A stretch of DNA of 64,000 nt, taken from the sequence record PV660463, one strand, 5' to 3'. The notes beneath the pieces are model-generated. The model worked only from the letters and a program-made list of their open reading frames with translations. It was not told where the DNA came from and did no database searches. Source of the DNA: Escherichia phage LF82-41. The position numbers and the translations under genes are program-made. Shown here piece by piece: positions 39,127 through 52,618 of this stretch (the stretch's first letter is position 1; each line of letters begins with the position of its first letter).

Positions 39127-39298
39127 TTAGTTTCTCTTAAGGTTGGGGCCATTCCATGGCACATGTTAGGTCCTTCGACTCGCTATGTAAACCCATTACC
39201 GCATTGCGCTCGACCTTATTACAGGTTGGAAAAGGTACATCACTCAGAGGACTCGACGTTCATGAGGAGAGGTTGCGTTTCCCTTTATTAGGCAAGAA

Positions 39299-39628
39299 TT
39301 ATACTCTAGGCTTTTGAGCTTGTTTGGTATTGGATTCCCATGTGGCTTTGGTAATTTTGTTAGCGGCATAACCAAAGGCATTAGATAGAACACCTTTAGA
39401 GTTGAATACATCCAATCCAATAAGTACACCGGCTGTGTTAAATTTAGGAGCAAAGTACGCATTAGTTTTAGAAAGAGCTTTTTTCAATTCAGGGTCTTGA
39501 ACCAAGCCATCAAAAACGCCTTTACTATTTACTTTATATGTTACTTTGGGATTTTTACCTTCTTCGATAGCAGCTTTCTGTTCCGCAGATAATGTAACTT
39601 CAGTGATAAACTCCTGATATGTTTTCAT
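39299..39628 (-). CDS. internal-protein-like (capsid-targeting leader MKTYQEFITE)
   Basis: 109 aa; N-terminal leader shared with T4 internal proteins. Confidence 0.7.
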   Translation of the reverse strand: MKTYQEFITEVTLSAEQKAAIEEGKNPKVTYKVNSKGVFDGLVQDPELKKALSKTNAYFAPKFNTAGVLIGLDVFNSKGVLSNAFGYAANKITKATWESNTKQAQKPRV

Positions 39629-39636
39629 TTTGTTCC

Positions 39637-40050
39637 TTAGTAAATTGATTTACCATAGTATTTGTACCAAGTCGGACGTTGAGCAATTTTTTCATCTAAG
39701 CGTGCTTGACTTATCGCAATGGACGCTTCGGACGGGACATAATTATTACGAAATTCGGCAGGGATGTCGGAAATATCCTGGACTGTCGTGTCCTTGATTT
39801 TGAAACCACGTTTCAAACATTCAGCGATTAGCTCGATTTGACGTAAACGTAAAAATTCGAGTTTGTCGTAAAAGAACGTTACGTGGCCTGTGCCTAAGAT
39901 AAATGTTGGAGAGATTTTAAAATCCTTTACACGTTTACCGTTTTGAACATGTTTACGGACTGCACCAAATACGCGTGGTAATTCACGATACTCAGCCATA
40001 AGATGTTGGTCGGACAGTTCAGAAACAAGTGTTAAATTGATACGAGTCAT
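39637..40050 (-). CDS. denV: endonuclease V (pyrimidine-dimer DNA glycosylase)
   Basis: [34 protein letters not shown]... matches T4 DenV. Confidence 0.93.
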
Positions 40051-40054
40051 AATT

Positions 40055-40109
40055 TCCTCCAAGTAGTTGATGAATGTATAGTATCAAATCCCTTGGAGGA
40101 AGTAAACAC
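40055..40109 (-). promoter_or_regulatory. early-promoter/stem-loop cassette (PeSL-like) upstream of denV
   Basis: tcctccaag...cttggagga inverted repeat; minus-strand GTTTAC -35. Confidence 0.5.
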
Positions 40110-40390
40110 TATTTTTCTGAAGCGCCTGAAATATATTTTTCAAGACGTTGTTTCATCAGCGAGCCGTTCTTAGCGATTTCTTCTGGTTTATCGCACATAC
40201 GCAACAAGGCTTCAAGCTTAGCGATATCGCTGGTACGTTCAAATTTGCGAGTATCTATCTTACTAGCAAGTTCAGAAATACGTGCTAATAGACTTTCAGC
40301 TTCAACCAAAGCTGCACCTAGCTTAGTTGCAAATGTGTCAGTAGCTTCGTTAAGAATAGATTCTGATAAAAATTCACTATATGTTTTCAT
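40109..40390 (-). CDS. internal-protein-like (leader [10 protein letters not shown])
   Basis: 93 aa from internal Met of ORF 40109..40405. Confidence 0.65.
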
Positions 40391-40875
40391 ATATACGCTT
40401 TCCAAGTTCCTGTTTTAAATGTTGAGATTACGCGTTTCGCGCGATTAGGTGTCTGACGATACCATTTAGATTGAGCTAGATTTACTGCCGCTTCATCCCA
40501 ACGTTTCTGTTTAAGCATACGAAGAGAATTAGTAAAACCAGCGACGCCTGCTACACCCATTTGGAAGACCATATTGACCAATGCACACCGACGAACTGCA
40601 TCTAAAGAATCATATACCGGTTTAAGTTTAGCATTACCCAAGATTCCGCGGACGGCTTTATCAACGTCTTCATTAAATAGCTTTTCAGCCTCATCAAGGG
40701 TAATTGTACCGTTGCATTTACGACCGATCATTCTGTCAAGTTCAGCTTTAGCTACGGCTAAAGACGGGTTCTTTGTTACTAAATGGCCTATGCCAATCGT
40801 CCAAAAGCCTTCAGTGTCTTTGTATAAAGTCAGTCTAAGACCTTCGTCATTACGAAGCATTTCAAATATATTCAT
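40387..40875 (-). CDS. e: lysozyme (endolysin)
   Basis: [32 protein letters not shown]... matches T4 lysozyme. Confidence 0.95.
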
Positions 40876-40903
40876 AATACCTCCCACGTTTATAGGAGGT
40901 ATT
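40876..40903 (-). promoter_or_regulatory. RBS-sequestering hairpin with embedded late-promoter-like TATAAA upstream of e
   Basis: aatacctcc cacgtttata ggaggtatt: SD GGAGGT of e pairs with upstream ACCTCC, as in T4. Confidence 0.55.
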
Positions 40904-40909
40904 TATTAC

Positions 40910-41368
40910 TTATAGGAGGGTAGTGAGCACCTTATATAATGATTTGCCCATTACATATTCCCATTGAGAAGGTTTAATTAAAGCGAATGCATCAAATTCA
41001 GGAATCTGTCGTCCGTTTGGGAATGTATGATAGGAATTGCAAACACTGTTTCTGAATTGCTCGTGCTCTACAGGGATGGTATATAGGAACAGATGAATAT
41101 TCTTATTGTCTGAGTAATTATGTTCACCTAGGTCTTTCAGGAAGGCAGGGTCATATTGTGTAAACCCAGTTTCTTCTTCGCATTCACGAATAGCGGCTTC
41201 AATAGGAGATTCACCAGGTTCGACACGGCCTTTAGGAATATCCCACCGATGAGCTAATGCACCTTTAGGACGAGAACCAGTTACACGACCCATGAATAAT
41301 TCTTTATCTTTTGTCATGAAGATAATACCGGCTGATAGTTCTTTCACTTTATTTTTCTTACTCATCAT
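40910..41368 (-). CDS. nudE: Nudix hydrolase
   Basis: Nudix box GRVEPGESPIEAAIRECEEETG. Confidence 0.85.
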   Translation of the reverse strand: MMSKKNKVKELSAGIIFMTKDKELFMGRVTGSRPKGALAHRWDIPKGRVEPGESPIEAAIRECEEETGFTQYDPAFLKDLGEHNYSDNKNIHLFLYTIPVEHEQFRNSVCNSYHTFPNGRQIPEFDAFALIKPSQWEYVMGKSLYKVLTTLL

Positions 41369-41609
41369 CTCGGTCCCATGATTTGGCCATCAATTCGGAC
41401 ATAAATTCTTCAATGCGCGTTTCTTTAGATGGACTTTCACTATTAGAGACCGCAAGTTTGTAATCTGCAATAGGACAGAACATATCAAGGCCCGTATTAA
41501 GATCGTCTTTGATTTTTTCTTCTGACACATCTTTATCATATGTGTACAGATAACTATCACATGATTCTGATTTAATGTAAATTGCTATACTCATCTCAAA
41601 TTCCTGCAT
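41358..41609 (-). CDS. hypothetical protein (83 aa)
   Basis: ORF. Confidence 0.5.
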   Translation of the reverse strand: MQEFEMSIAIYIKSESCDSYLYTYDKDVSEEKIKDDLNTGLDMFCPIADYKLAVSNSESPSKETRIEEFMSELMAKSWDRDDE

Positions 41610-42082
41610 TCGGTAATAAAACGTTCAACTTCATTATTCTTGGCCTTTATCTTGTCTTTACGTTCCTGTAAACTACTTTTAACAAGATTAATAATTATGC
41701 CTATAGTACCTCCACCAATAATACCACCAATAATACTTACGATAGTAGATGCTAATAATATAGCGATAATATCTGGTATGGCAAAGGCACTTACTTTAGT
41801 ACTAAAAAACCATACCGACGGTACAAATATAATCCATCCTGTTATCCATTGGCACTTATTGAAAAACTTTTCAAGCTCAACTTGAGTTGTTCGTATTACT
41901 TCATCGATAGGTTGATATCCATTAATGTATCTGTTCACGATAATACCTGCTGGCTGGTCGATTTTAAATTCTTGGCAAATACGTTTCACTAAGTAGGATG
42001 GACATCCTGTCCAATCCACTGAATAGTACGAAATACCTTCATTACCGTCGTCAATATTAGACCAATATGTTTTGTTAATCAT
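41591..42082 (-). CDS. membrane protein (163 aa)
   Basis: ORF with two hydrophobic segments including Gly/Ile-rich stretch. Confidence 0.6.
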   Translation of the reverse strand: MINKTYWSNIDDGNEGISYYSVDWTGCPSYLVKRICQEFKIDQPAGIIVNRYINGYQPIDEVIRTTQVELEKFFNKCQWITGWIIFVPSVWFFSTKVSAFAIPDIIAILLASTIVSIIGGIIGGGTIGIIINLVKSSLQERKDKIKAKNNEVERFITECRNLR

Positions 42083-42768
42083 TACCAGCCTTCCATAGGG
42101 AATTCCAGATAAACTTGGGCATTGACACGAATTTCATTGGTAATCTTTTTAACTCGGTCTGTATTACGAGATACACGTCCGAACCAACGCCATCCATTAC
42201 TAATTGCACGAGAACCAGTGTGCCATGTTTGCCAATCGAACTGAAGAAGAGTACGGTCTGGAGCTTCCCATTTCTCTAGTTCACCTTTTTCAATTTTTTC
42301 GAGGACTTCTTTGTGCCACTGGCGATAGATAAGTTCGCCATCAGGAATCTGACTGAACTCTGCAGTTCCTGTTGCAAAATGAGTAGGACACACATCAGCG
42401 TTAACAAGACCAAGAATATGTTCAGACAAATAGCGAGGATTGTCATAGTCAGGTTGTCCTGCAGTAATAAAATGTTGACCAACCGGAATATCCGGGCGTG
42501 GTACGTCATCATGGTGATAACCAGGAATAGCAGGGTACCAGCCAGGCATCAGCATGTGGACTCGTGAATCAAATACAACCTGGTCGGTGTTCCAATCATC
42601 CGGCAAGTTCATGATGAAGCTGCGAGTAATAGGACCGCCGTTATTATAAGCAAATTCTAAACTACAGTTGAAGAACATAGGCTCGTTCTTGATTTTATCA
42701 TTAGAAATACCGCCGGCAAAACCACCTACTGCACGAGCTTGACTATTAAACACTTTAGAACTATTCAT
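42082..42768 (-). CDS. hypothetical protein (228 aa)
   Basis: ORF. Confidence 0.65.
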   Translation of the reverse strand: MNSSKVFNSQARAVGGFAGGISNDKIKNEPMFFNCSLEFAYNNGGPITRSFIMNLPDDWNTDQVVFDSRVHMLMPGWYPAIPGYHHDDVPRPDIPVGQHFITAGQPDYDNPRYLSEHILGLVNADVCPTHFATGTAEFSQIPDGELIYRQWHKEVLEKIEKGELEKWEAPDRTLLQFDWQTWHTGSRAISNGWRWFGRVSRNTDRVKKITNEIRVNAQVYLEFPMEGW

Positions 42769-42769
42769 A

Positions 42770-43075
42770 TTATTTTCCTCGACATTCTTTAATGAAATTT
42801 TCTAGATTGGTAGATTCAATAGCTTTTTTACGAGCTTCTGCGTGTTCTTCTTCGGACAATTTACGTTTATAATTGACCCAGACATTATGGTCGAAACCAG
42901 TCGTGGCATATAATATCAAAGCTCCGACGAATAATAAAAACGGTGATAAAAATATACAACCAGGAACACCATCCATATCGTAAGCCTTTTGTAATACTGC
43001 AACAGAAAGAGCTGCGTAAAAAAGTGATACAAATATTGTTAAAAGACCAATTCGGTTGGTTTCTGTTAATTTCAT
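42770..43075 (-). CDS. small membrane protein (101 aa)
   Basis: ORF with two TM-like segments. Confidence 0.55.
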   Translation of the reverse strand: MKLTETNRIGLLTIFVSLFYAALSVAVLQKAYDMDGVPGCIFLSPFLLFVGALILYATTGFDHNVWVNYKRKLSEEEHAEARKKAIESTNLENFIKECRGK

Positions 43076-43091
43076 AATATTCTCCTCATGT

Positions 43092-43134
43092 TTTAATAGG
43101 ACTACTATAACATAGTCCTATCAGTTTGTACACT
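43092..43134 (-). promoter_or_regulatory. early-promoter/stem-loop cassette (PeSL-like)
   Basis: gataggactactataacatagtcctatc palindrome. Confidence 0.5.
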
Positions 43135-43352
43135 TATTTTGACATTTCTTCGATGTCACGACGATACCCATCACGAACTTCACGAAGAGCTTCAAGGCCA
43201 CACATAGGCTCGATACCAGTAATGTGAACTTGATTAATCTGATACTCTACATCTTCTAACTGAGCGAAAACATAACGACGTTCTGCTGCACAACCAGGTT
43301 TAGCTTTACCGAAACGTTTATTCAAAGTAGTCATTTTTATATCTCCATTCAC
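43134..43352 (-). CDS. hypothetical protein (72 aa)
   Basis: ORF. Confidence 0.5.
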   Translation of the reverse strand: MNGDIKMTTLNKRFGKAKPGCAAERRYVFAQLEDVEYQINQVHITGIEPMCGLEALREVRDGYRRDIEEMSK

Positions 43353-43359
43353 TCATTTG

Positions 43360-43403
43360 TTTTGATAGGTCTATAGTATCAACAACTACAGACCTTGTAA
43401 ACT
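43360..43403 (-). promoter_or_regulatory. early-promoter/stem-loop cassette (PeSL-like)
   Basis: ttgataggtctatagtatcaacaactacagaccttgtaaactg. Confidence 0.5.
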
Positions 43404-43414
43404 GTTTTGTGAAA

Positions 43415-44371
43415 TTATTTGAAAGGTTTTACCATATGAAAGTTTTGTTTAAAACGTTTTACATAATCGTCATGTCCTAAGCTTTGGTACATACTTACAA
43501 CTTTGCTGTAGTTTTCCCAAGCGTATTCACGGAACCAGCCTGACGTGATTGAAGTACAGACCTTTTCAAGAGCCATCATAAAACTATCACGTGGATGGAT
43601 TTCAAAGTTATTAGGAATCTGAGAACGTTCTAACGCTAGTACACATGATTCTTCGTATACGCCAGCCAATTTGACCATTTCCGGTAATGATTCGAACTTC
43701 TCGCGTGAGGTCATGACTTCAGAACCATCTTTCATATAAAATGTATACGCTGGACGGTCCGTTAGTGCAATGGCTTCGTGAATAGTATCATGGTCATACG
43801 TATAGATGTCATCTTTAAAGAATGCGCTTTTAGAAGTGTCAAGAACTGGGTGAGCATAGTTCAAGGTTTCTTTCTGGCGTTTCAGCATAATTTCATTAAG
43901 TTCATCGTTCAGTGTAACACCTTTACCACGAAGATACTGAATATGGTTCATAGTCTTTAAAAAGAATGGATTATTTTTCTTGAAACGATGGGACATCTTA
44001 ATTGCAAGGCACATCTCAGGAGTTGCCCAGTAAAACCCGTTCAAACGGTCTTTAGTCAAATTTTTCTTGGCGTATTTTAAAAGGTCATAAGAAGACGTGA
44101 AATCTTCAGGAGTGAGTTCACCGACTAATTCACGGACATTAGTGATTGCCGGAACAATATATGCTTCAAAATGAGTTTCGCGCCCATTATGGAAGCATTT
44201 GAAAACTTGGACATCAGGGTTATCTTGGTGAACATATACACCCATCATTTGATTTTTGAATGCATTCCAAGAACCTTGGTCCGCAATAAAGTCCCAATCA
44301 CTATTTTTAATAGCGCTAGAATCAATAAGACCGTGATAGTGAAGTGCACGAGAACCAATAACTAACATCAT
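43415..44371 (-). CDS. hypothetical protein (318 aa)
   Basis: ORF; weak NTase-like GS...DxD spacing at N-terminus. Confidence 0.7.
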   Translation of the reverse strand: MMLVIGSRALHYHGLIDSSAIKNSDWDFIADQGSWNAFKNQMMGVYVHQDNPDVQVFKCFHNGRETHFEAYIVPAITNVRELVGELTPEDFTSSYDLLKYAKKNLTKDRLNGFYWATPEMCLAIKMSHRFKKNNPFFLKTMNHIQYLRGKGVTLNDELNEIMLKRQKETLNYAHPVLDTSKSAFFKDDIYTYDHDTIHEAIALTDRPAYTFYMKDGSEVMTSREKFESLPEMVKLAGVYEESCVLALERSQIPNNFEIHPRDSFMMALEKVCTSITSGWFREYAWENYSKVVSMYQSLGHDDYVKRFKQNFHMVKPFK

Positions 44372-44399
44372 AATATTTTCCTCGGATTAATTCATTAAC

Positions 44400-44651
44400 T
44401 TAAATTTCACGACATGCGATATTATATTCATCCCAGAGGTCATCATGTGAAGCCTCTACCAATGGAACGATTGTACCGTTTATGTCTTCATTATAAGGGC
44501 AAATTGTACAGTGCGCATCTTCGAATCGGATGCCTTTGTGTTCAGATTTTTTATAACGCATATCGAATATCTTTGCAAACTTTTCACGAGTAATGGTTTT
44601 ACCAACCACTTTGGTTCCGATACTTTCGTAATAAATCATTGTGGACTCCAT
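44400..44651 (-). CDS. hypothetical protein (83 aa)
   Basis: ORF. Confidence 0.5.
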   Translation of the reverse strand: MESTMIYYESIGTKVVGKTITREKFAKIFDMRYKKSEHKGIRFEDAHCTICPYNEDINGTIVPLVEASHDDLWDEYNIACREI

Positions 44652-44654
44652 TTG

Positions 44655-44699
44655 TTTTGATAGGACTACTATAACATAGCCCTATCTTGTTGTAAACTG
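44655..44699 (-). promoter_or_regulatory. early-promoter/stem-loop cassette (PeSL-like)
   Basis: ttgataggactactataacatagccctatc...tgtaaactg. Confidence 0.5.
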
Positions 44700-44701
44700 T
44701 T

Positions 44702-44899
44702 TTAGCAAGAATAACTAGATGATACCCAGCCTTGAACAGTGATACTATTGTGGGATAATGAGATCGCGTCCTGGAGATTCAGACCTGCGTTATCTTCAAT
44801 CCATAATGTAACTTCTTCGCGTTCTTCTGTTGCAATTTGGAACAGGTTTTCTAGAGCAGCTACTGCGGTACGTACAGCACAATCTAATTCACGAGACAT
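44702..44899 (-). CDS. small protein, member of tandem family with C-terminal GWVSSSxxC
   Basis: 65 aa ending QGWVSSSYSC. Confidence 0.55.
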   Translation of the reverse strand: MSRELDCAVRTAVAALENLFQIATEEREEVTLWIEDNAGLNLQDAISLSHNSITVQGWVSSSYSC

Positions 44900-44908
44900 A
44901 TTGTTTCC

Positions 44909-45181
44909 TTAGCAAGTGTGAGAAGATGCGACCCAACCACCAGTTTCGAGGCTCAGGTTGTAGTCGTATTGGTAAACGTCAGCCCATTCGGCATAACCGT
45001 TTTTTGTACAACGTTCAAGATCGGCTTTAAGATGTCCGGGTGAATGATAGGTTCCACCCATACCATAAGCTGGGTACAAGTTGAATGTTGTGTTTTGTTT
45101 ATCAGCAATTTCTTTGGCAGCCTCAATAGCGGCATAGATTTTTGCTACAGCTTCAGCCAGTTCGGTTTGTTCTTTAGACAT
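44909..45181 (-). CDS. small protein, member of tandem family with C-terminal GWVASSxxC
   Basis: 90 aa ending GGWVASSHTC. Confidence 0.55.
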   Translation of the reverse strand: MSKEQTELAEAVAKIYAAIEAAKEIADKQNTTFNLYPAYGMGGTYHSPGHLKADLERCTKNGYAEWADVYQYDYNLSLETGGWVASSHTC

Positions 45182-45190
45182 AATGATTCC

Positions 45191-45496
45191 TTAGCACAAC
45201 GCAGAAGACGAAACCCAAGCACCTTCAGTAATAACGTATCCATTACCTTCACGCTTAACATCGCCGCCATTATTTTCAATTTCATCTTTCATCCACTGGG
45301 ATACGATTTCACCCTTAGGATAATAAGTACGACCGCTACCATAATCACCTACAGAAAATGATACGGCATATTGGTCTGCGATCTTTGTTGCTTCTTCTTC
45401 GATACGTTCAGCTTGATTTAGAAGTTTATAAATTGCATCTGAAGCGGATTTGGCATCATTAAATTCTGGTACTTTAATTTCAATAATCTTACTCAT
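45191..45496 (-). CDS. small protein, member of tandem family with C-terminal AWVSSSxxC
   Basis: 101 aa ending GAWVSSSALC. Confidence 0.55.
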   Translation of the reverse strand: MSKIIEIKVPEFNDAKSASDAIYKLLNQAERIEEEATKIADQYAVSFSVGDYGSGRTYYPKGEIVSQWMKDEIENNGGDVKREGNGYVITEGAWVSSSALC

Positions 45497-45594
45497 TTTC
45501 TACATTCCTTAATAAAGTTTTCGATTGTTTCATTTTCACGTCTAGCTAGGAGTTCATTATAACTAATCATTTGAGAAGCGTAAACAGCATAAAT

Positions 45595-46017
45595 TCAGTT
45601 CAGGCTTTTGCATCTTATTTCCTTAACGAATTCCATAGCTTCTTCATATTCATACTTTTTAACAGCTTCATCATACTGAGCTTGGGCTTTTGCGCACTGA
45701 ACTTTCCATTCTCTTAATCTGGCTCTGTGATGACGGCCTTGGTGCCAATATCCCACCCAATTAATAGGCATTAATAAAAACGGTACAATAAGTGGTGCGA
45801 CGAACATTAATGAAAATGCTGCATCAGACGATATAACTTCACTAGAATCTAAAACAGCTCCTATAATCATAAAGATTAAAAATGCTAAAGCTAAAATAGG
45901 GCCAAATAGTACTTCATTTGGGATTAATTTACGCTTGTATTCATACGCCCAGGGCTTACTTGGCATGTATAGGGTTGGCTTTGACATATTCTCTACATTC
46001 CATAATAAATTGCTCAA
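45595..46017 (-). CDS. membrane protein (start uncertain)
   Basis: 140 aa ORF with two hydrophobic segments; overlaps upstream ORF so true start probably internal. Confidence 0.5.
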   Translation of the reverse strand: MSNLLWNVENMSKPTLYMPSKPWAYEYKRKLIPNEVLFGPILALAFLIFMIIGAVLDSSEVISSDAAFSLMFVAPLIVPFLLMPINWVGYWHQGRHHRARLREWKVQCAKAQAQYDEAVKKYEYEEAMEFVKEIRCKSLN

Positions 46018-46558
46018 GGATTAAATTGTTAGTGAAATTAGGACTAACAACCATAGTTTCATAAAGCGCATCAATAGCACTTAAAGCATCAACTCTTTTA
46101 AGCAAAGGCTTGCCTTCATACATAGTTTCAGAATCGATGATTAACGTAAAGTAATATTTTTTATTATCGACTAGAACTTCTGTATCGATATAAAACATAT
46201 TAGACCTCAGAAGCTTATCTCTAAAACCATAATAATCTTCAGAGCGTTCGCTGATATATTCCCATTCAGTGTTTAAACAACAAACAGACCACGTAGGAGC
46301 AACGAAATCAGTGAATCTAATATCATGGTCTGCAACTAGTTTAGCAATAGCTCCGATATCATGAATCATAATACCTGGGGCTAATAAAGATTTTCTGCTA
46401 TGGCTAGCCGTTTTCTCGGTGGTCTCATAAGAAGACGACCAGTACCATTTACGTCCGGTTGCAACATATCGTAATGAATCAACTAAGGACGTAGGTGGAT
46501 TTACCTTATCTCGGAACTCTTCGAACATTGAGTCAATATCATTATTTTGGTTTCGCAT
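45956..46558 (-). CDS. hypothetical protein (about 200 aa)
   Basis: ORF 45956..46579. Confidence 0.6.
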   Translation of the reverse strand: MRNQNNDIDSMFEEFRDKVNPPTSLVDSLRYVATGRKWYWSSSYETTEKTASHSRKSLLAPGIMIHDIGAIAKLVADHDIRFTDFVAPTWSVCCLNTEWEYISERSEDYYGFRDKLLRSNMFYIDTEVLVDNKKYYFTLIIDSETMYEGKPLLKRVDALSAIDALYETMVVSPNFTNNLILEQFIMECREYVKANPIHAK

Positions 46559-46607
46559 GTTAACTCCTTTATTATCCAAAAGGAGGACCGGAGTCCTCCG
46601 TATTATT

Positions 46608-47201
46608 TTATTTCAAAGAGTTAATATATTCTTGTACATCAGCAGAAGTGGTTTCGACACCAGCTGGAGTGCCATTGAACGTTTCAACACGAGTCAGAGT
46701 GTCTTCGATATCAACCTTAGTCAGTGCAGCGATTTCAATTACATCGTCAGCGGTAGAGATACCAAGGGCATTGGCTGCTCGAGTTTCACGAATGTATTCG
46801 AGTTTGATTGCCAGGTTCTGACGAGCATCGTCAAGTTCAACCACCTTACGAGCAATTTCAATTCGCATAGCGGCATACCCGTCAGCTTTTGTATTAAGTT
46901 GTTCGGCAGTTCGACGATACAGAAGACCAAGCTTAGCATGCATGGTAACATCTTGTCCTTCAGCCAGGAGCTTACGAATTTCACGTTCCTTAGAAGCGGC
47001 TTGTTTGTTCTTTTCATTAACAAGTTCGCGAATACGTTTTTCTTCATTAATAGATTTAACAGAAGCCGTTTTTAGTTCTTTGATTTGGGTAATCAACTTA
47101 TCTGCAGCTGCGTTATACTGTTCTTCGACAGTCAGATTTTTAGCCATAGCAGTACCCAGTTTAGTGCGGATAAATTCAACAAGTTTCTTCAGTGTGTTCA
47201 T
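46608..47201 (-). CDS. coiled-coil protein (about 197 aa)
   Basis: ORF 46608..47216; highly helical Lys/Glu/Ala-rich. Confidence 0.6.
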
Positions 47202-47226
47202 ATTATTACCTTTCAATTGGTGGTTT

Positions 47227-47272
47227 ATTATCCAATGAGAGCATTATACTCTGCTCTCAAGAGTTTGTAAAT
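47227..47272 (-). promoter_or_regulatory. early-promoter/stem-loop cassette; near-identical copy of 17341..17385
   Basis: ccaatgagagcattatactctgctctcaagagtttgtaa; minus strand TTTACA-17-TATAAT. Confidence 0.55.
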
Positions 47273-47499
47273 TATTTTTTAATCAAATTGACATAAAACT
47301 TGGCGTCTTCGGGGTGCATGCCTTCGCAGTATTCTTCAACCATGAAATTCTTAACAGCTTCATAAGGACCACTCAGATTAAGCTCAGTTGTCCAAAACTT
47401 GGAATCTTGGACTGAATCGATACGAACTTCAGGATGACGATTGCGAATAACTTCTTCGGTGTATTCATAATCAACGACATCAATACTAACTTTAGCCAT
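47272..47499 (-). CDS. hypothetical protein (75 aa)
   Basis: ORF. Confidence 0.5.
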   Translation of the reverse strand: MAKVSIDVVDYEYTEEVIRNRHPEVRIDSVQDSKFWTTELNLSGPYEAVKNFMVEEYCEGMHPEDAKFYVNLIKK

Positions 47500-47514
47500 T
47501 TTGTTTCTCCTCTT

Positions 47515-47558
47515 GATTTGATAGGTCTATAGTAACACCTTCCTTGGTGTTTGTACAT
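47515..47558 (-). promoter_or_regulatory. early-promoter/stem-loop cassette (PeSL-like)
   Basis: ttgataggtctatagtaacacc...gtttgtacatc. Confidence 0.5.
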
Positions 47559-48061
47559 CATTTATTTTTAATTTTGCAAATTTTTCCAGCTTCGATACAT
47601 GCAGCATAGATGATGCTCTGGGCAATTTTATTGCTAGTAGACCTTGCAATCACACTAAGAACAATTTCTTTTTCTTCACCACCACAACCCCAGGACCTTT
47701 GCCCATGAGTACCTTTAACTACGGCTGAAACTTCAACAGAACGTCCGCCATCAGAAGTTTTAACATCTACAACCCAATCACCATCTTTCTCTTCAATCTG
47801 TGGTTTATCCCAATAGATATTAATAAACGATGTCTCACCAATAGAAGTCGGCGGTTTTTTCTCTACAGTAAGACCTTCGCTTTCTAACCACTCAATGACT
47901 TTTGTAGATAAAGCTAAAGAAACATGTAATGGACAACGACAGTATTTTTCACCTTTAGCTGAAGACTCGTACATCTTTTCTAAAATACGCTTTTGCACGT
48001 TTTTAAAAATAGTTTCAGCAGATTCTTCAGATTTTTTATTCAGTTCAGTATAAAGACTCAT
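47558..48061 (-). CDS. hypothetical protein (167 aa)
   Basis: ORF. Confidence 0.6.
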   Translation of the reverse strand: MSLYTELNKKSEESAETIFKNVQKRILEKMYESSAKGEKYCRCPLHVSLALSTKVIEWLESEGLTVEKKPPTSIGETSFINIYWDKPQIEEKDGDWVVDVKTSDGGRSVEVSAVVKGTHGQRSWGCGGEEKEIVLSVIARSTSNKIAQSIIYAACIEAGKICKIKNK

Positions 48062-48074
48062 AGCATTTTCCTCT

Positions 48075-48120
48075 GTAGTTGATAGGTCTATACTAACACA
48101 TCTAGGGAAGAAGTAAACAA
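48075..48120 (-). promoter_or_regulatory. early-promoter/stem-loop cassette (PeSL-like)
   Basis: gtagttgataggtctatactaacac...gaagtaaacaac. Confidence 0.5.
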
Positions 48121-48149
48121 CTTTTTCAGTAAGTTATAGACCCCCTAAA

Positions 48150-48165
48150 GGGGACCGAAGTCCCC
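48150..48165 (-). terminator. stable UUCG-tetraloop hairpin at 3' end of gene 48171..48797
   Basis: ggggacCGAAgtcccc. Confidence 0.45.
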
Positions 48166-48170
48166 ATTCT

Positions 48171-48797
48171 TTACTTACGAGTTTTTGCATACTGAGCAGC
48201 GTCAGCAGCCAAACGACCTGCCTGACGAAGTTTTTCTTTAATCGCATCGTGAAGTGGTTGAGTATACTTCAAACCTTCGATAGTCAAATAAAGACGATAA
48301 AGGTCTGGGGTATCAAGGTTGTTGATATGTTGGCCATTACGAAGACTGTTGAATTCACGAACGAGTGAAGATGTATCAGATTCAATATCACGAACAAGCG
48401 AAGATAGTTGTTTATATTTTTTTTCCAGGCTAGAAGTATCAAACTTAAGAGCAGGAGCTTTAGGAGTTGCTTTTACTTCCGGCTTAGGCTCAGGTTTTGC
48501 TATTGCTTTAGGGGTCGCAGGTTTAGGAACGGTAGGAGCAGGTTTTACTTTAGGCGAGCCCGATTTAGCAGAAACACCACCACTAACAATATCTTTGAAT
48601 GCTTTAGAAGCTCTGTAATATTCTTTTTGGCTGGAAGTGTCGATACCGTACATGGCTTGAACGTTTTTGAAAAACTCTGTACTAGTTTTTGTACCAGAAA
48701 TAGCATCGTAAGCAGCTTGCCATTTCTCTTTTGTCATACGTACACCGGCTTCGGTGATTACTTCCGTTTCGGCTAAAAATTCATTAAAAGTATACAT
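48171..48797 (-). CDS. internal-protein-like with leader MYTFNEFLAETE and Lys/Pro/Ala-rich low-complexity linker
   Basis: 208 aa; N-terminal leader resembles capsid-targeting sequence; PKVKPAPTVPKPATPKAIAKPEPKPEVKATPKAP repeat region. Confidence 0.6.
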   Translation of the reverse strand: MYTFNEFLAETEVITEAGVRMTKEKWQAAYDAISGTKTSTEFFKNVQAMYGIDTSSQKEYYRASKAFKDIVSGGVSAKSGSPKVKPAPTVPKPATPKAIAKPEPKPEVKATPKAPALKFDTSSLEKKYKQLSSLVRDIESDTSSLVREFNSLRNGQHINNLDTPDLYRLYLTIEGLKYTQPLHDAIKEKLRQAGRLAADAAQYAKTRK

Positions 48798-48841
48798 TGA
48801 TGGTCCTTAGAAAGTAGGTTTATTGTTTACTATATTTATAC

Positions 48842-48871
48842 AAAAAAAGCCCCAACCTTTCGGAAGGGGCT
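48842..48871 (-). terminator. intrinsic terminator (hairpin + U-run on minus strand), repeat of 33493..33520
   Basis: A7 run then agccccaacctttcggaaggggct on plus strand. Confidence 0.55.
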
Positions 48872-48904
48872 ATATACCTTGTCGGGGTTTCCACCTACTA
48901 GGTA

Positions 48905-49000
48905 AGTGTTTGTACGAAACGCCGGGATTCGAACCCGGTTATTAAGCAGTTGACGCTACTCAATATTTTTAAAAGGCCGTATCTCTACCATATCCGAACG
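48905..49000 (-). other. tRNA-like remnant / possible small stable RNA (canonical T-arm, no clean cloverleaf)
   Basis: minus strand ccgggTTCGAATcccgg T-arm at 48921..48939 with 3' acceptor-like strand; anticodon/D arms could not be folded by eye. Confidence 0.3.
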
Positions 49001-49173
49001 TCCCGTCAAAAACGCTACTCGGCTTACGGCAAAGATATTTCCTCGAATCGATAATTCTGTGCGCCGTTTCTGCTGTGATGTAAGGGGATATTAACAAATC
49101 ATAAAGATTTATTAAGACCAATCCTTACTCAGGGAACATCAGTCCGACGTCTTGCCGGTAGCGACCCGGCTTC

Positions 49174-49518
49174 TTATTTTGGCATATCATCAATTTGCTC
49201 TCGACGCCGACGCCATAGATTAATCGCTTCATAGGCACATTCTGCGTTTGGTATATGACGGCAATAATATAATGATTCGCGTTTCTGGAACCGATGTTGT
49301 AATGGAATTTCGTTTAAAAGGTCTTTACGGTCAAAGTATTCAAAACTAGTTAACCCAGAACGGTTTTTAATGAACTTCCAATGATCAAATTCATTTTGAG
49401 CATAGATGTAATCGGCATGCTGATACAGCGAATTAATCAATCGATGAGAAATAACTGTATCATATTCGTTAAAATAAAACGTTAAATCATGAACTACCAG
49501 ATAAATATTGCCTTTCAT
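49174..49518 (-). CDS. hypothetical protein (114 aa from internal Met)
   Basis: ORF 49174..49566 overlaps tRNA-Arg; start moved to MKGNIYLVV at 49518. Confidence 0.5.
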   Translation of the reverse strand: MKGNIYLVVHDLTFYFNEYDTVISHRLINSLYQHADYIYAQNEFDHWKFIKNRSGLTSFEYFDRKDLLNEIPLQHRFQKRESLYYCRHIPNAECAYEAINLWRRRREQIDDMPK

Positions 49519-49536
49519 ATTTTCCTCACTTGAAGT

Positions 49537-49613
<77 letters not shown>

Positions 49614-49616
49614 AAT

Positions 49617-49691
49617 TGGTGACCCTGGCTGGTTTCGATCCAGCTACCTATCAGTTATGAGCTGACAGCTCTCCCATTGAGCTACAGGGCC
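49617..49691 (-). tRNA. tRNA-Met or tRNA-Ile2 (anticodon CAT), CCA encoded
   Basis: Manual cloverleaf: acceptor ggccctg/cagggtc, D-stem gctc/gagc, anticodon loop ctCATaa, T-arm gctgg-atcgaaa-ccagc. Confidence 0.8.
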
Positions 49692-49770
49692 TTAATAACT
49701 TTCTATTATGAAAGGCACTTTAGAGCACCTTTGGTAATAGAGGGTATGAATTAATAATAACACATAATTC

Positions 49771-50286
49771 TTAAAGCAAATCAATCATTTTAACAGTTGG
49801 CAAAACAATTTCTTCTTCAATATAAGCAAATTCGACACGTTCAACTACACGCAAGAAATCGTAATCATAGTATTCAGAAGCATAGCCAAGAATATCAATA
49901 AGTCCTTGAGATATCTCATCGCCTTTCACAAAGAACAGGTCGAATACGCGGGCTTCGTCTTCTTCAGATTTATCACCAAGGTCTACTTCGATGCCAAAGA
50001 CCTTTTTAATAAATTCTGGTCGGAGTTGGTCTGAGAACAGCCCTTCAACCAGATATTCGTAGATAATAAGCGAGCAGTCACTGAATGGTGTATTACCACA
50101 GTAACGTTCAGCTTTAGTGCTGGAATGACGACTCTTAAATTTCTTCAAGAGATATTTAAACTGTTGGAGCTCATGCTCTTCCACTTCAAACAATGTTTTG
50201 GTTTTATAGTTGTCCCCGTCATTTTCATAGGTAGTGACATCAATTACATAACCCTTAGGAATTGTACTGCCTAAACAAATATTCAT
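49771..50286 (-). CDS. hypothetical acidic protein (171 aa)
   Basis: ORF. Confidence 0.6.
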   Translation of the reverse strand: MNICLGSTIPKGYVIDVTTYENDGDNYKTKTLFEVEEHELQQFKYLLKKFKSRHSSTKAERYCGNTPFSDCSLIIYEYLVEGLFSDQLRPEFIKKVFGIEVDLGDKSEEDEARVFDLFFVKGDEISQGLIDILGYASEYYDYDFLRVVERVEFAYIEEEIVLPTVKMIDLL

Positions 50287-50290
50287 TTAC

Positions 50291-50581
50291 TCACCGTACC
50301 ATATTAATGTAATTATACTCAATACATTCAAGATTTAAAGGATTCTTGAAAATATCATATTCAAGAGGACCTTTTTCTGTTTCAATAAAGAAATCAAAGT
50401 TCACACTACTAAATTTGCGGTCTTCCCAAAGTAATTTAACCTGTGAAGATGAACGGTCGACGTAAACCTTTTCAACTTCAAAGTGGGTCAAAATACCATA
50501 GTAATCGACTAGTGCTTTAGCTGCACGTTGATCGCTTTCATATCCATTCTCAACGGATTTTACCTTAGCATAAAGAATCAT
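50291..50581 (-). CDS. hypothetical protein (96 aa)
   Basis: ORF. Confidence 0.55.
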   Translation of the reverse strand: MILYAKVKSVENGYESDQRAAKALVDYYGILTHFEVEKVYVDRSSSQVKLLWEDRKFSSVNFDFFIETEKGPLEYDIFKNPLNLECIEYNYINMVR

Positions 50582-50940
50582 GAATGTTCCACCACTTCAA
50601 AGGTATGAGCATCAACAATATGATACCAGTCAAAATTTTCTTCTGCGTTTTTATAAATTTCGCGAAGAGCTTCAACAGTTTTTCCTGTAGCAACAAGGTC
50701 GTCAATACCACCAAGAGGATAACAGTCATAACCAGCAAACAGAAGGAAATTAATAGTTTCTGTAGGTTCTGGATGCAAAACACCATTATCATCTACCACT
50801 TCAAAGAAAGTGTAAGAAGGAGTACAAGTTTTAATCCAGGCCCATGCTTGAGCTGCTGAATCAAACGGATTACGGAATAAACGACAATCCGGGTCTTTAG
50901 AAGGATTTGCTTCAAAATCCGCATATACGTGATATTTCAT
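50578..50940 (-). CDS. hypothetical protein (about 120 aa)
   Basis: ORF 50578..50973; start probably MKYHVYADF. Confidence 0.55.
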   Translation of the reverse strand: MKYHVYADFEANPSKDPDCRLFRNPFDSAAQAWAWIKTCTPSYTFFEVVDDNGVLHPEPTETINFLLFAGYDCYPLGGIDDLVATGKTVEALREIYKNAEENFDWYHIVDAHTFEVVEHS

Positions 50941-50941
50941 T

Positions 50942-51127
50942 TTACTCACCTTTTGCAATTTTATCCATAACAATAGCGATTAAACCGATTAGAAATGCTA
51001 CTACCAATGAGATAGAATTTTCAGTTGTTGTCAGTAGTCCACAAATGAATCCTACAAACATCGAAAAACTAAAAGCCATTGAAGCAATTACTACAGCAAC
51101 ATTACGAATCAGTTCAGCGCGTTTCAT
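50942..51127 (-). CDS. small membrane protein (61 aa)
   Basis: ORF with two hydrophobic helices. Confidence 0.5.
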   Translation of the reverse strand: MKRAELIRNVAVVIASMAFSFSMFVGFICGLLTTTENSISLVVAFLIGLIAIVMDKIAKGE

Positions 51128-51140
51128 TTTATTCTCCTCA

Positions 51141-51187
51141 GTAGTTGATAGGGTAATAGTATCACTACCCTATCTAAAAGTAAACGG
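51141..51187 (-). promoter_or_regulatory. early-promoter/stem-loop cassette (PeSL-like)
   Basis: gatagggtaatagtatcactaccctatc palindrome; minus-strand GTTTAC -35. Confidence 0.5.
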
Positions 51188-51196
51188 TTTTATAAA

Positions 51197-51505
51197 CTAT
51201 TTTATTCCGCGTGATGCAATCGTATTCTGCCGTTTAACGCCGGTTTGTTTAAAGTCATGACTGTCGATTTGATCGGTACGAGCAACTCCGAATGATGATT
51301 TAATCTTAGCTTTAGATCCTTTAACTATAGAAATAAACATCTCGGAAGACCCTTTCTTAAAGTCTGATGCAGATACTTCAACGCCGTTCTTAGCAAGTGA
51401 CCTCAGAATTGCATCCGCGTACTCATCATCAAGACTCGCTTGAGTATTAATAACGAATGTCTTTGGTGCAGCCGCTTCATTGATAAATTCTTTGAAAGTT
51501 TTCAT
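51197..51505 (-). CDS. internal-protein-like (leader MKTFKEFINEA)
   Basis: 102 aa basic protein with capsid-targeting-type N-terminus. Confidence 0.7.
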   Translation of the reverse strand: MKTFKEFINEAAAPKTFVINTQASLDDEYADAILRSLAKNGVEVSASDFKKGSSEMFISIVKGSKAKIKSSFGVARTDQIDSHDFKQTGVKRQNTIASRGIK

Positions 51506-51521
51506 TTTATTTTCCTAATTA

Positions 51522-51567
51522 ATTTTGATAGGACTACTATACCATAATCCTATCAGCATGTAAACTA
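51522..51567 (-). promoter_or_regulatory. early-promoter/stem-loop cassette (PeSL-like)
   Basis: minus strand GTTTAC-18-TATAGT; palindrome gataggact..agtcctatc. Confidence 0.5.
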
Positions 51568-51568
51568 C

Positions 51569-51856
51569 TTACAGAAGGGTTTTTGCAATAATTTTAAGCT
51601 GAGCTACAGAAATATGCTTAGCTTTAAACAGTGCAGTCTCTTCAGCCGGAGAGATAACAATAGTAGCGCCATCTTTCTTAGCAGACCATCCATCCCCTAA
51701 GTAAACAGTACCTTTTACTTCTTCGCCGTCAACCAGACTAATCATTGGTTTACCCTCACGTCCTTTATTTGCTTTAATAACTTCGGAAGTAAGGGTCGCT
51801 TCGGTCAGAGTAGAAACGTTAGCATCAGGTGATATAAATTCTTTATAGGTTTTCAT
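51569..51856 (-). CDS. ipI: internal protein I-like (leader MKTYKEFIS)
   Basis: 95 aa, same length and position (upstream of 57B) as T4 ipI. Confidence 0.7.
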   Translation of the reverse strand: MKTYKEFISPDANVSTLTEATLTSEVIKANKGREGKPMISLVDGEEVKGTVYLGDGWSAKKDGATIVISPAEETALFKAKHISVAQLKIIAKTLL

Positions 51857-51878
51857 TTTATTTCCTTGAGGTCGTTTA

Positions 51879-51922
51879 TTTGATAGGATGATAGTAACAC
51901 GCCATCATCCTTATGTAAACTG
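51879..51922 (-). promoter_or_regulatory. early-promoter/stem-loop cassette (PeSL-like)
   Basis: aggatgatag...catcatcct palindrome; minus-strand GTTTAC -35. Confidence 0.5.
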
Positions 51923-51932
51923 TTTTGTAAAA

Positions 51933-52618
<686 letters not shown>

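Follow-up and report, generated by a model that had tools for sequence, protein, structure and literature searches.

What proteins might a T4-like phage bring into its host together with the DNA? The question is raised by a stretch of 64,000 nucleotides from Escherichia phage LF82-41 (sequence record PV660463), called the window hereafter, in which five open reading frames (ORF1 to ORF5) begin with the same type of short leader peptide as the internal proteins (IPs) of the T4 head. Our analysis suggests that these five genes probably encode internal head proteins of a Mosigvirus, which would be loaded into the head through the leader, processed by the prohead protease gp21 and injected with the DNA. 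This reading draws on the leader motifs, the family memberships of the proteins, the conservation of the leader and of a late promoter, and a recombination breakpoint, all of which we observed directly. We infer every function other than that of IPI.

The region belongs to Mosigvirus, the RB69-like genus of Tevenvirinae and a relative of T4. About 100 coliphage genomes match it at 95-97% identity, including Mizar, FP43, CEV1, ATK47, HX01 and LF82-1, and both ATK47 and HX01 are classified as Mosigvirus. Mizar is the closest relative, with 96.6% nucleotide identity across this region. The gene order in the window is T4-like, i.e. e, denV, the e.x genes, the tRNA cluster, trna.2-4, ipI, 57B and 57A.

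A six-frame scan of the window with the pattern M[KY]T[YF].EF[IL] gave exactly five matches, every one at the start of an ORF (Table 1). The pattern has no match in 100 shuffles and a looser one has on average 0.01 matches per shuffle, and no sixth leader-bearing candidate was found in the window under a further relaxed pattern. All five ORFs are on the minus strand, each with a ribosome-binding site. An earlier note on this DNA had listed these ORFs as starting with M(K/Y)T(Y/F)xEF(I/L) followed by a glutamate at position 10. All five are indeed present, but two details need correction. The mechanically called ORF2 opens at TTG 40405, whereas the relatives annotate its start at ATG 40390. The last part of the quoted motif holds for ORF1 to ORF4 but not for ORF5, where residue 10 is a proline and, similar to T4 IPI, the leader runs for 19 residues up to LTE.

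Table 1. Coordinates in the window of the five leader-bearing ORFs and of the elements associated with them
Feature	Position	Strand	Description
ORF1	39299..39628	-	109 aa; leader MKTYQEFITE, then V
ORF1 leader-coding segment	39598..39628	-	10 codons; recombination joint of the cassette swap with phage LF82-1
ORF2	40109..40390	-	93 aa; leader ends LSE10, then S
GGGGAC-UUCG-GUCCCC hairpin	48150..48165	-	directly 3' of the ORF3 stop codon
ORF3	48171..48797	-	208 aa; leader MYTFNEFLAE, then T
T4 late-promoter consensus TATAAATA	48833..48840	-	43 nt upstream of the ORF3 start codon
Intrinsic-terminator hairpin GCCCCUUCCGAAAGGUUGGGGC plus seven U	48842..48870	-	-16 kcal/mol, z -2.65; 0/200 shuffles fold equally well
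ORF4	51197..51505	-	102 aa; leader MKTFKEFINE, then A
Early-type promoter in a stem-loop (PeSL-type), upstream of ORF4	51506..51565	-	TTTACA, 17 nt, TATAGT; -15.7 kcal/mol, z -3.8
ORF5, ipI	51569..51856	-	95 aa; MKTYKEFISPD..., leader ends LTE19, then A
Early-type promoter in a stem-loop, upstream of ipI	51857..51922	-	TTTACA, 17 nt, TACTAT; -14.3 kcal/mol

In the T4 IPIII leader, mutagenesis has traced targeting to residues 4 and 7 and processing to residues 8 and 10, and its first 10 residues suffice on their own to bring foreign proteins into the head (PMC9026906). Each of the five ORFs has an aromatic residue (Y/F) at position 4, Phe at position 7 and either Ile or Leu at position 8, and ORF1 to ORF4 also have Glu10. 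The proposal of the earlier note that the leaders are the T4 capsid-targeting sequence of the type cut by the prohead protease thus agrees with the published determinants at residues 4, 7, 8 and 10. The predicted (L/I)-x-E sites are ITE10 in ORF1, LSE10 in ORF2, LAE10 and ITE16 in ORF3, INE10 in ORF4 and LTE19 in ORF5. The predicted mature forms are 8-22 kDa, with isoelectric points (pI) of 9.0-10.0 for four of the five, similar to the values of the T4 IPs. Past their first 10-25 residues, ORF1 to ORF4 show no resemblance to T4 IPI, IPII or IPIII, nor to the other leader-bearing ORFs of the window. Neither ipII nor ipIII was found in the window, and a search of the window with IPIII matched the leaders only.

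Based on what is known of T4, each protein would be made with an N-terminal capsid-targeting sequence of about 10 residues (19 in IPI), which would bind the scaffolding core during prohead assembly. The gp21 prohead protease would cut behind the Glu of (L/I)-x-E and remove the leader, and the small, mostly basic mature protein would remain among the packaged DNA and enter the host cell alongside it. There IPI* would block the GmrSD type IV restriction enzyme, and the other four would most likely target other first-response host defences or host functions. For ORF1 to ORF4 we infer packaging, cleavage and injection from the leader. Purified virions of Jiaodavirus were found to contain gp127, a non-T4 leader protein (MKTYQEFLNES...), with 66 peptide-spectrum matches, so the tag has predictive value outside T4; gp127 bears the same leader type but differs from the five proteins described here.

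ORF5 matches the Pfam nuclease-inhibitor family IPI_T4 (PF11634) over all 76 profile positions, with E = 1.4e-50 and 169.6 bits (gathering cut-off 25), and it matches the structure 2JUB in PDB with E = 6e-42 in an alignment that starts from residue 20. It is 88% identical to T4 IPI over the full length, both 19-residue leaders end in (I/L)TE followed by A, and the gene adjoins 57B and 57A as T4 ipI does. These sequence comparisons make ORF5 an orthologue of IPI. Four of its 76 mature residues are not those of T4 IPI*, which makes it the RB69 type. RB69 IPI likewise differs from T4 IPI* at four positions and has been reported to protect RB69 from GmrSD; whether the four substitutions alter the range of GmrSD variants blocked is a question posed in the same work (PMC6024577). 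We therefore predict that ORF5 inhibits the GmrSD type IV restriction enzyme. The adjoining 57B homologue (51933-52388, minus strand) is annotated as anti-CBASS Acb1-like in the Mizar record, and the 57B-ipI-Ip7 stretch resembles a small anti-defence cluster.

ORF4 and ORF2 belong to IP families that already have names. ORF4 is a member of the Ip7 family, matching phrog_2667 'internal head protein' with E = 3.8e-41 over residues 1-102, and its homologues carry the names Ip7 or internal head protein. Its predicted structure has a small ferredoxin-like alpha/beta core (residues 15-71) and a disordered basic tail; a fold search with it returned generic matches only and no functional clue. The region upstream of ORF4 is 82% identical to that upstream of T4 ipI, and the layout of an early promoter in a stem-loop, found at T4 ipI, ipII and ipIII, is common to ORF4 and ORF5. 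ORF2 matches phrog_3499 'internal head protein' over its full length (E = 2.1e-46) and is a relative of Ip5, with 47.6% identity to Ip5 of phage RB15 over 90% of the length. It has a second candidate cleavage site, LNE followed by A, and its ATG overlaps the stop codon of the endolysin gene e (ATGA). Like the polymorphic IPs Ip5 and Ip7 of the T-even phages, ORF2 and ORF4 sit in known variable loci (e-denV and 57B-tRNA) and have only the leader in common with other IPs. The view that the five genes form a set of candidate injected anti-defence proteins, put forward in the earlier note, therefore stands as far as ORF5 is IPI and ORF4 and ORF2 fall into named IP families, but an anti-defence role has been published for IPI alone.

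ORF1 belongs to the RB69ORF123c family (phrog_3966, unknown function). This family is found in 90 phage records and is called 'hypothetical protein' in nearly all rows listed, two rows being named otherwise; in the protein cluster of ORF1 every named member is a 'hypothetical protein'. The family alignment is made up of near-identical sequences only. The predicted mature form of ORF1 is ~10.7 kDa with pI 9.7. ORF1 starts 8 nt after denV, whose stop codon overlaps the Shine-Dalgarno sequence of ORF1.

The 208-aa ORF3 had been singled out in the earlier note as an unusual member, its linker being without recognised counterpart. The protein is not unique and belongs to phrog_2280 (unknown function), a family found in 143 phage records; none of them gives the family a name, and each annotated record seen calls it hypothetical. 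An exhaustive HMMER search of 1.8 billion proteins returned 13 cluster representatives, indicating that the family is confined to T4-like phages. It occurs, among others, in Mosigvirus, Dhakavirus, Karamvirus and Marfavirus and in phages of Serratia, Yersinia, Kosakonia and Erwinia, and each genome examined has the homologue flanked by the tRNA cluster on one side and the e.8-like genes on the other. The leader is the best conserved part, with a mean pairwise identity of 53% vs 21-36% in the remaining parts, and it is kept even in members that are ~25% identical overall. In the Dhakavirus orthologues it has the canonical form MKTYNEFLNE. The codons of the leader vary while the residues are kept, which indicates selection on the peptide. 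At the second predicted site of the family, (I/L)xE16 followed by Ala, Glu16 is invariant. The predicted mature form of ORF3 is 21-22 kDa with pI 9.7 and 34 Lys+Arg.

ORF3 looks like a self-contained late transcription unit, as a terminator hairpin and a T4 late-promoter consensus lie upstream of it and a UUCG hairpin downstream. The consensus TATAAATA or a 7-of-8 variant with ATAAATA was found no more than ~45 nt upstream of the start at all of the 12 ORF3 homologue loci examined, from several genera, and the sequence flanking this conserved motif has diverged. The upstream hairpin is likewise conserved at these 12 loci, an equivalent being present for instance in PG7, Potts1 and AnYang, and it is predicted to insulate ORF3 from transcription upstream. 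Having a late promoter and terminator of its own, the two-domain ORF3 would be produced while the head assembles.

The AlphaFold model of ORF3 has a mean predicted local distance difference test (pLDDT) score of 74 with both domains confidently modelled. It consists of a disordered leader (residues 1-18), a helical N-domain (20-72), a disordered Pro/Ala/Lys linker (75-118) and a helical bundle (122-206). The long Lys/Pro/Ala-rich linker described in the earlier note is thus real, residues 73-118 holding 11 Pro, 8 Ala and 10 Lys/Arg out of 46. Across the family the linker is 25 to 50 residues long, always Pro/Ala/Lys-rich and with a net positive charge in every member. In this model, two small domains on a flexible tether would suit the passage through the narrow tail channel. 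Two candidate matches of ORF3 were judged compositional and rejected. One is the occludin coiled-coil, found with a profile against PDB sequences (E = 0.0016). The other is TonB for the linker, with an NCBIfam score of 17.4 bits vs a cut-off of 315, where the proline-rich spacer alone matches. All Pfam matches of ORF3 are below the cut-off.

The C-terminal domain has been exchanged in some members of this family. Two family members, P0019 and P0023, are near-identical through the N-domain and have unrelated C-terminal domains after it, and the alternative domain is also found in the phage contigs L015 (174,924 bp) and L016. In both contigs the leader, N-domain and linker of the ORF3 family are fused, at positions 1501-2127, to this other C-terminal domain (...GKYGTVIGSSELRTAIDAVIP...SGLSYTI) of unknown function. 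RB69 encodes at the same site a divergent family member, ORF149c, with a hhalign probability of 96.5% and the canonical leader MKTYAEFLTE; ORF149c and ORF148c (L009 10929-11491) are apparently one ORF3-family gene split by a frameshift. We speculate that the ORF3 family might be an unrecognised class of late-expressed injected proteins, present in several T4-like genera, in which a conserved carrier made of the leader, the small helical domain and the extended basic proline-rich linker delivers exchangeable C-terminal effectors into the host, similar to polymorphic toxin systems. This is a tentative idea, and on present evidence we hold it to be rather unlikely.

The same features of ORF3 could be read in another way. 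It is possible, though doubtful, that ORF3 and perhaps ORF1 are packaged and then act mainly inside the head, by neutralising the charge of the DNA, organising it or aiding the scaffold, and not in anti-defence. The basic mature forms (pI 9.7-10) and the Lys/Pro/Ala-rich linker, positively charged in every family member, would suit such a role, as would a purely late promoter like that of structural genes. The single syntenic position of ORF3 across several genera is also more housekeeping-like than arms-race-like, and a role of this kind has been proposed in part for T4 IPIII, whose mutants have head-assembly defects (PMC9026906). IPIII, however, also has a host-range role, being needed for the infection of strain ECOR17 (PMC9391042). 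Moreover, the ORF3 family is absent from T4 and from the examined Jiaodavirus, the one with published virion mass spectrometry, and apparently frameshifted in RB69, and so is dispensable, and the swapping of the C-terminal domain in some members is typical of effectors.

The likeness of ORF3 to T4 IPIII, a large and basic protein of 193 aa, extends to the leader, the mature mass, the charge and presumably the route into the head. Could ORF3 then be a functional replacement of IPIII in phages without ipIII? The figures are close, as the 34 Lys+Arg, 21-22 kDa and pI 9.7 of ORF3 compare with 33 Lys+Arg, 20.4 kDa and pI 9.65 for IPIII*, and the window has neither ipII nor ipIII. But JS98, S143_2, FL31 and AnYang carry ipIII and an ORF3 homologue together, for which reason we rejected this explanation; and ORF3 aligns with IPIII at residues 1-26 only (E = 0.008) and nowhere beyond the leader. 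We thus regard such a replacement as very improbable. ORF3 also differs from IPIII in that its mature part has no sequence similarity to it and is two-domain with a disordered linker, and in that T4 ipIII has an early promoter with a stem-loop whereas ORF3 has a late one. In AnYang, a Dhakavirus, we observed at least six leader-bearing ORFs in 16 kb (L006 1308-12804), namely ipIII, ipII, an Ip7-like, an ORF1-like and an ORF3-like ORF and a 132-aa ORF beginning with MKTYNEFIAENV; three of the leader-bearing ORFs are annotated just as hypothetical.

Several points weigh against the reading of all five genes as internal head proteins. The genes of gp21 and gp22 lie outside the 64-kb window and are known for this phage through its relatives only, Mizar encoding gp21, gp22, gp67 and gp68. 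The mature form of ORF2 is near neutral (pI 6.3-8.1) and not basic, and in ORF3 residues 2 and 4 are Tyr and Phe instead of Lys and Tyr. The RB69 orthologue of ORF1 is without Glu10 and the RB69 orthologue of ORF2 has a scrambled leader, so the tag is not kept in every case. A literature search on the ORF1 and ORF3 families found neither virion proteomics nor genetic data, and the fold and profile searches with ORF3 gave generic helical bundles and no functional clue. Finally, TATAAATA is not enriched in the whole window (7 observed vs 7.3 expected), so that position and cross-genus conservation are what speak for the ORF3 promoter. As for the orthologue of ORF2 in RB69, RB69ORF127c (L009 2423-2704), a -1 frameshift and a compensating shift apparently scramble the leader core, which could be a true mutation or an error in the 2003 sequence.

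How does such a repertoire change? A comparison with phage LF82-1 gives one answer. The homology between the two phages (97.8%) runs from denV down to 39598, i.e. 30 nt into ORF1 where the leader codons end, and resumes at 39165; between these breakpoints LF82-1 has an 86-aa IP and ipII in place of the window sequence. A 34-nt stretch at the ORF1 leader also matches the ipII leader of LF82-1 at 91%. Around ORF4 and ORF5 the three promoter stem-loop elements are direct repeats, and the ribosome-binding site and leader start of the two genes form a direct repeat of 90% identity. The cassette order differs within the genus as well, being 57B-Ip7-like-ipI in RB69 (L009 13950-14610) vs 57B-ipI-Ip7 in the window (51197-51856). 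Cassette order and content thus vary even within one genus (the window, RB69 and LF82-1). We suggest that the repertoire would vary because the leader-coding DNA and the promoter stem-loops serve as short patches of homology for cassette recombination.

The hyperplastic regions of T4-type phages are known to shuffle via promoter-early stem-loop (PeSL) cassettes (Arbiol et al. 2010, PMC2839356). Similar to such cassettes, ORF4, ORF5 and the downstream trna.4-like gene each stand behind a sigma-70-type promoter in a stem-loop. Here, however, the patch of homology reaches into the coding sequence, covering the ribosome-binding site and the leader codons, and the sole mapped breakpoint is at the end of the leader and not at the promoter. 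Judged from these sequences, the repertoire change fits PeSL shuffling, with the leader codons as a putative extra joint.

A joint of this kind invites the objection that the shared N-terminus might be a mere by-product of recombination at a conserved DNA linker, some of the proteins, notably ORF1 and ORF3, being cytoplasmic and unpackaged. The leader-coding DNA does act as a recombination joint, the repeat between ORF4 and ORF5 includes it, and in RB69 one orthologue has lost Glu10 and another has its leader scrambled, all of which would agree with this view. We nevertheless think it quite unlikely. The leader DNA of ORF3 is merely 63-76% identical to that of the other leaders, with different synonymous codons and the same residues, and across genera no other part of the ORF3 family is as well conserved as the leader. 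The late promoter suits the timing of head assembly, and in T4 the 10-residue leader by itself loads foreign proteins into the head (PMC9026906). Packaging through the leader thus stays our preferred explanation for all five proteins.

Two other parts of the window were looked at in passing. Three tandem ORFs of 65, 90 and 101 aa (44702-45496, minus strand) end with G-W-V-(S/A)-S-S-x-x-C before the stop codon, their C-termini being ...QGWVSSSYSC, ...GGWVASSHTC and ...GAWVSSSALC. Two of them hit phrog_899 in its C-terminal part and the third hits phrog_4882, two families of unknown function. The tRNA cluster (49537-49691) holds tRNA-Arg(tct) and tRNA-Met only, vs eight tRNAs in T4. The cluster of Mizar has in addition a tRNA-Asn and a homing-endonuclease-like gene between the tRNAs, both lacking in the window. 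An Rfam scan of the region found these two tRNAs and nothing else, with no match at 48840-49170, the place of rnaC/rnaD in T4.

The class of proteins, its leader tag and the arms-race reading of it are already established. Descriptions of the T-even IPs as varied defence proteins with only the leader in common go back to 1994 (PMC3012670; Repoila et al. 1994 as cited there), and a 2022 review says likewise of related phages (PMC9026906). What appears to be new here are the ORF1 and ORF3 families, which no annotation seen labels as internal proteins, and the unusual build and late promoter of ORF3. Our finding hence extends the catalogue and does not overturn the current understanding. Proteins that are injected with the DNA act ahead of phage gene expression and are well placed against first-response defences. 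To our knowledge, IPI is the only one of the T4-type IPs with a known target, and IPIII has a host-range phenotype only. Searching for the leader is an inexpensive way to pick out further candidates, and two conserved families (143 and 90 phage records) bear this tag while nearly all records seen call them 'hypothetical'. The swap with LF82-1, which breaks where the leader codons end, illustrates clearly how the set of IP genes is reshuffled. Should ORF3 be packaged, it would add a two-domain, late-expressed type with swappable C-terminal domains to a class known chiefly from small single-domain proteins.

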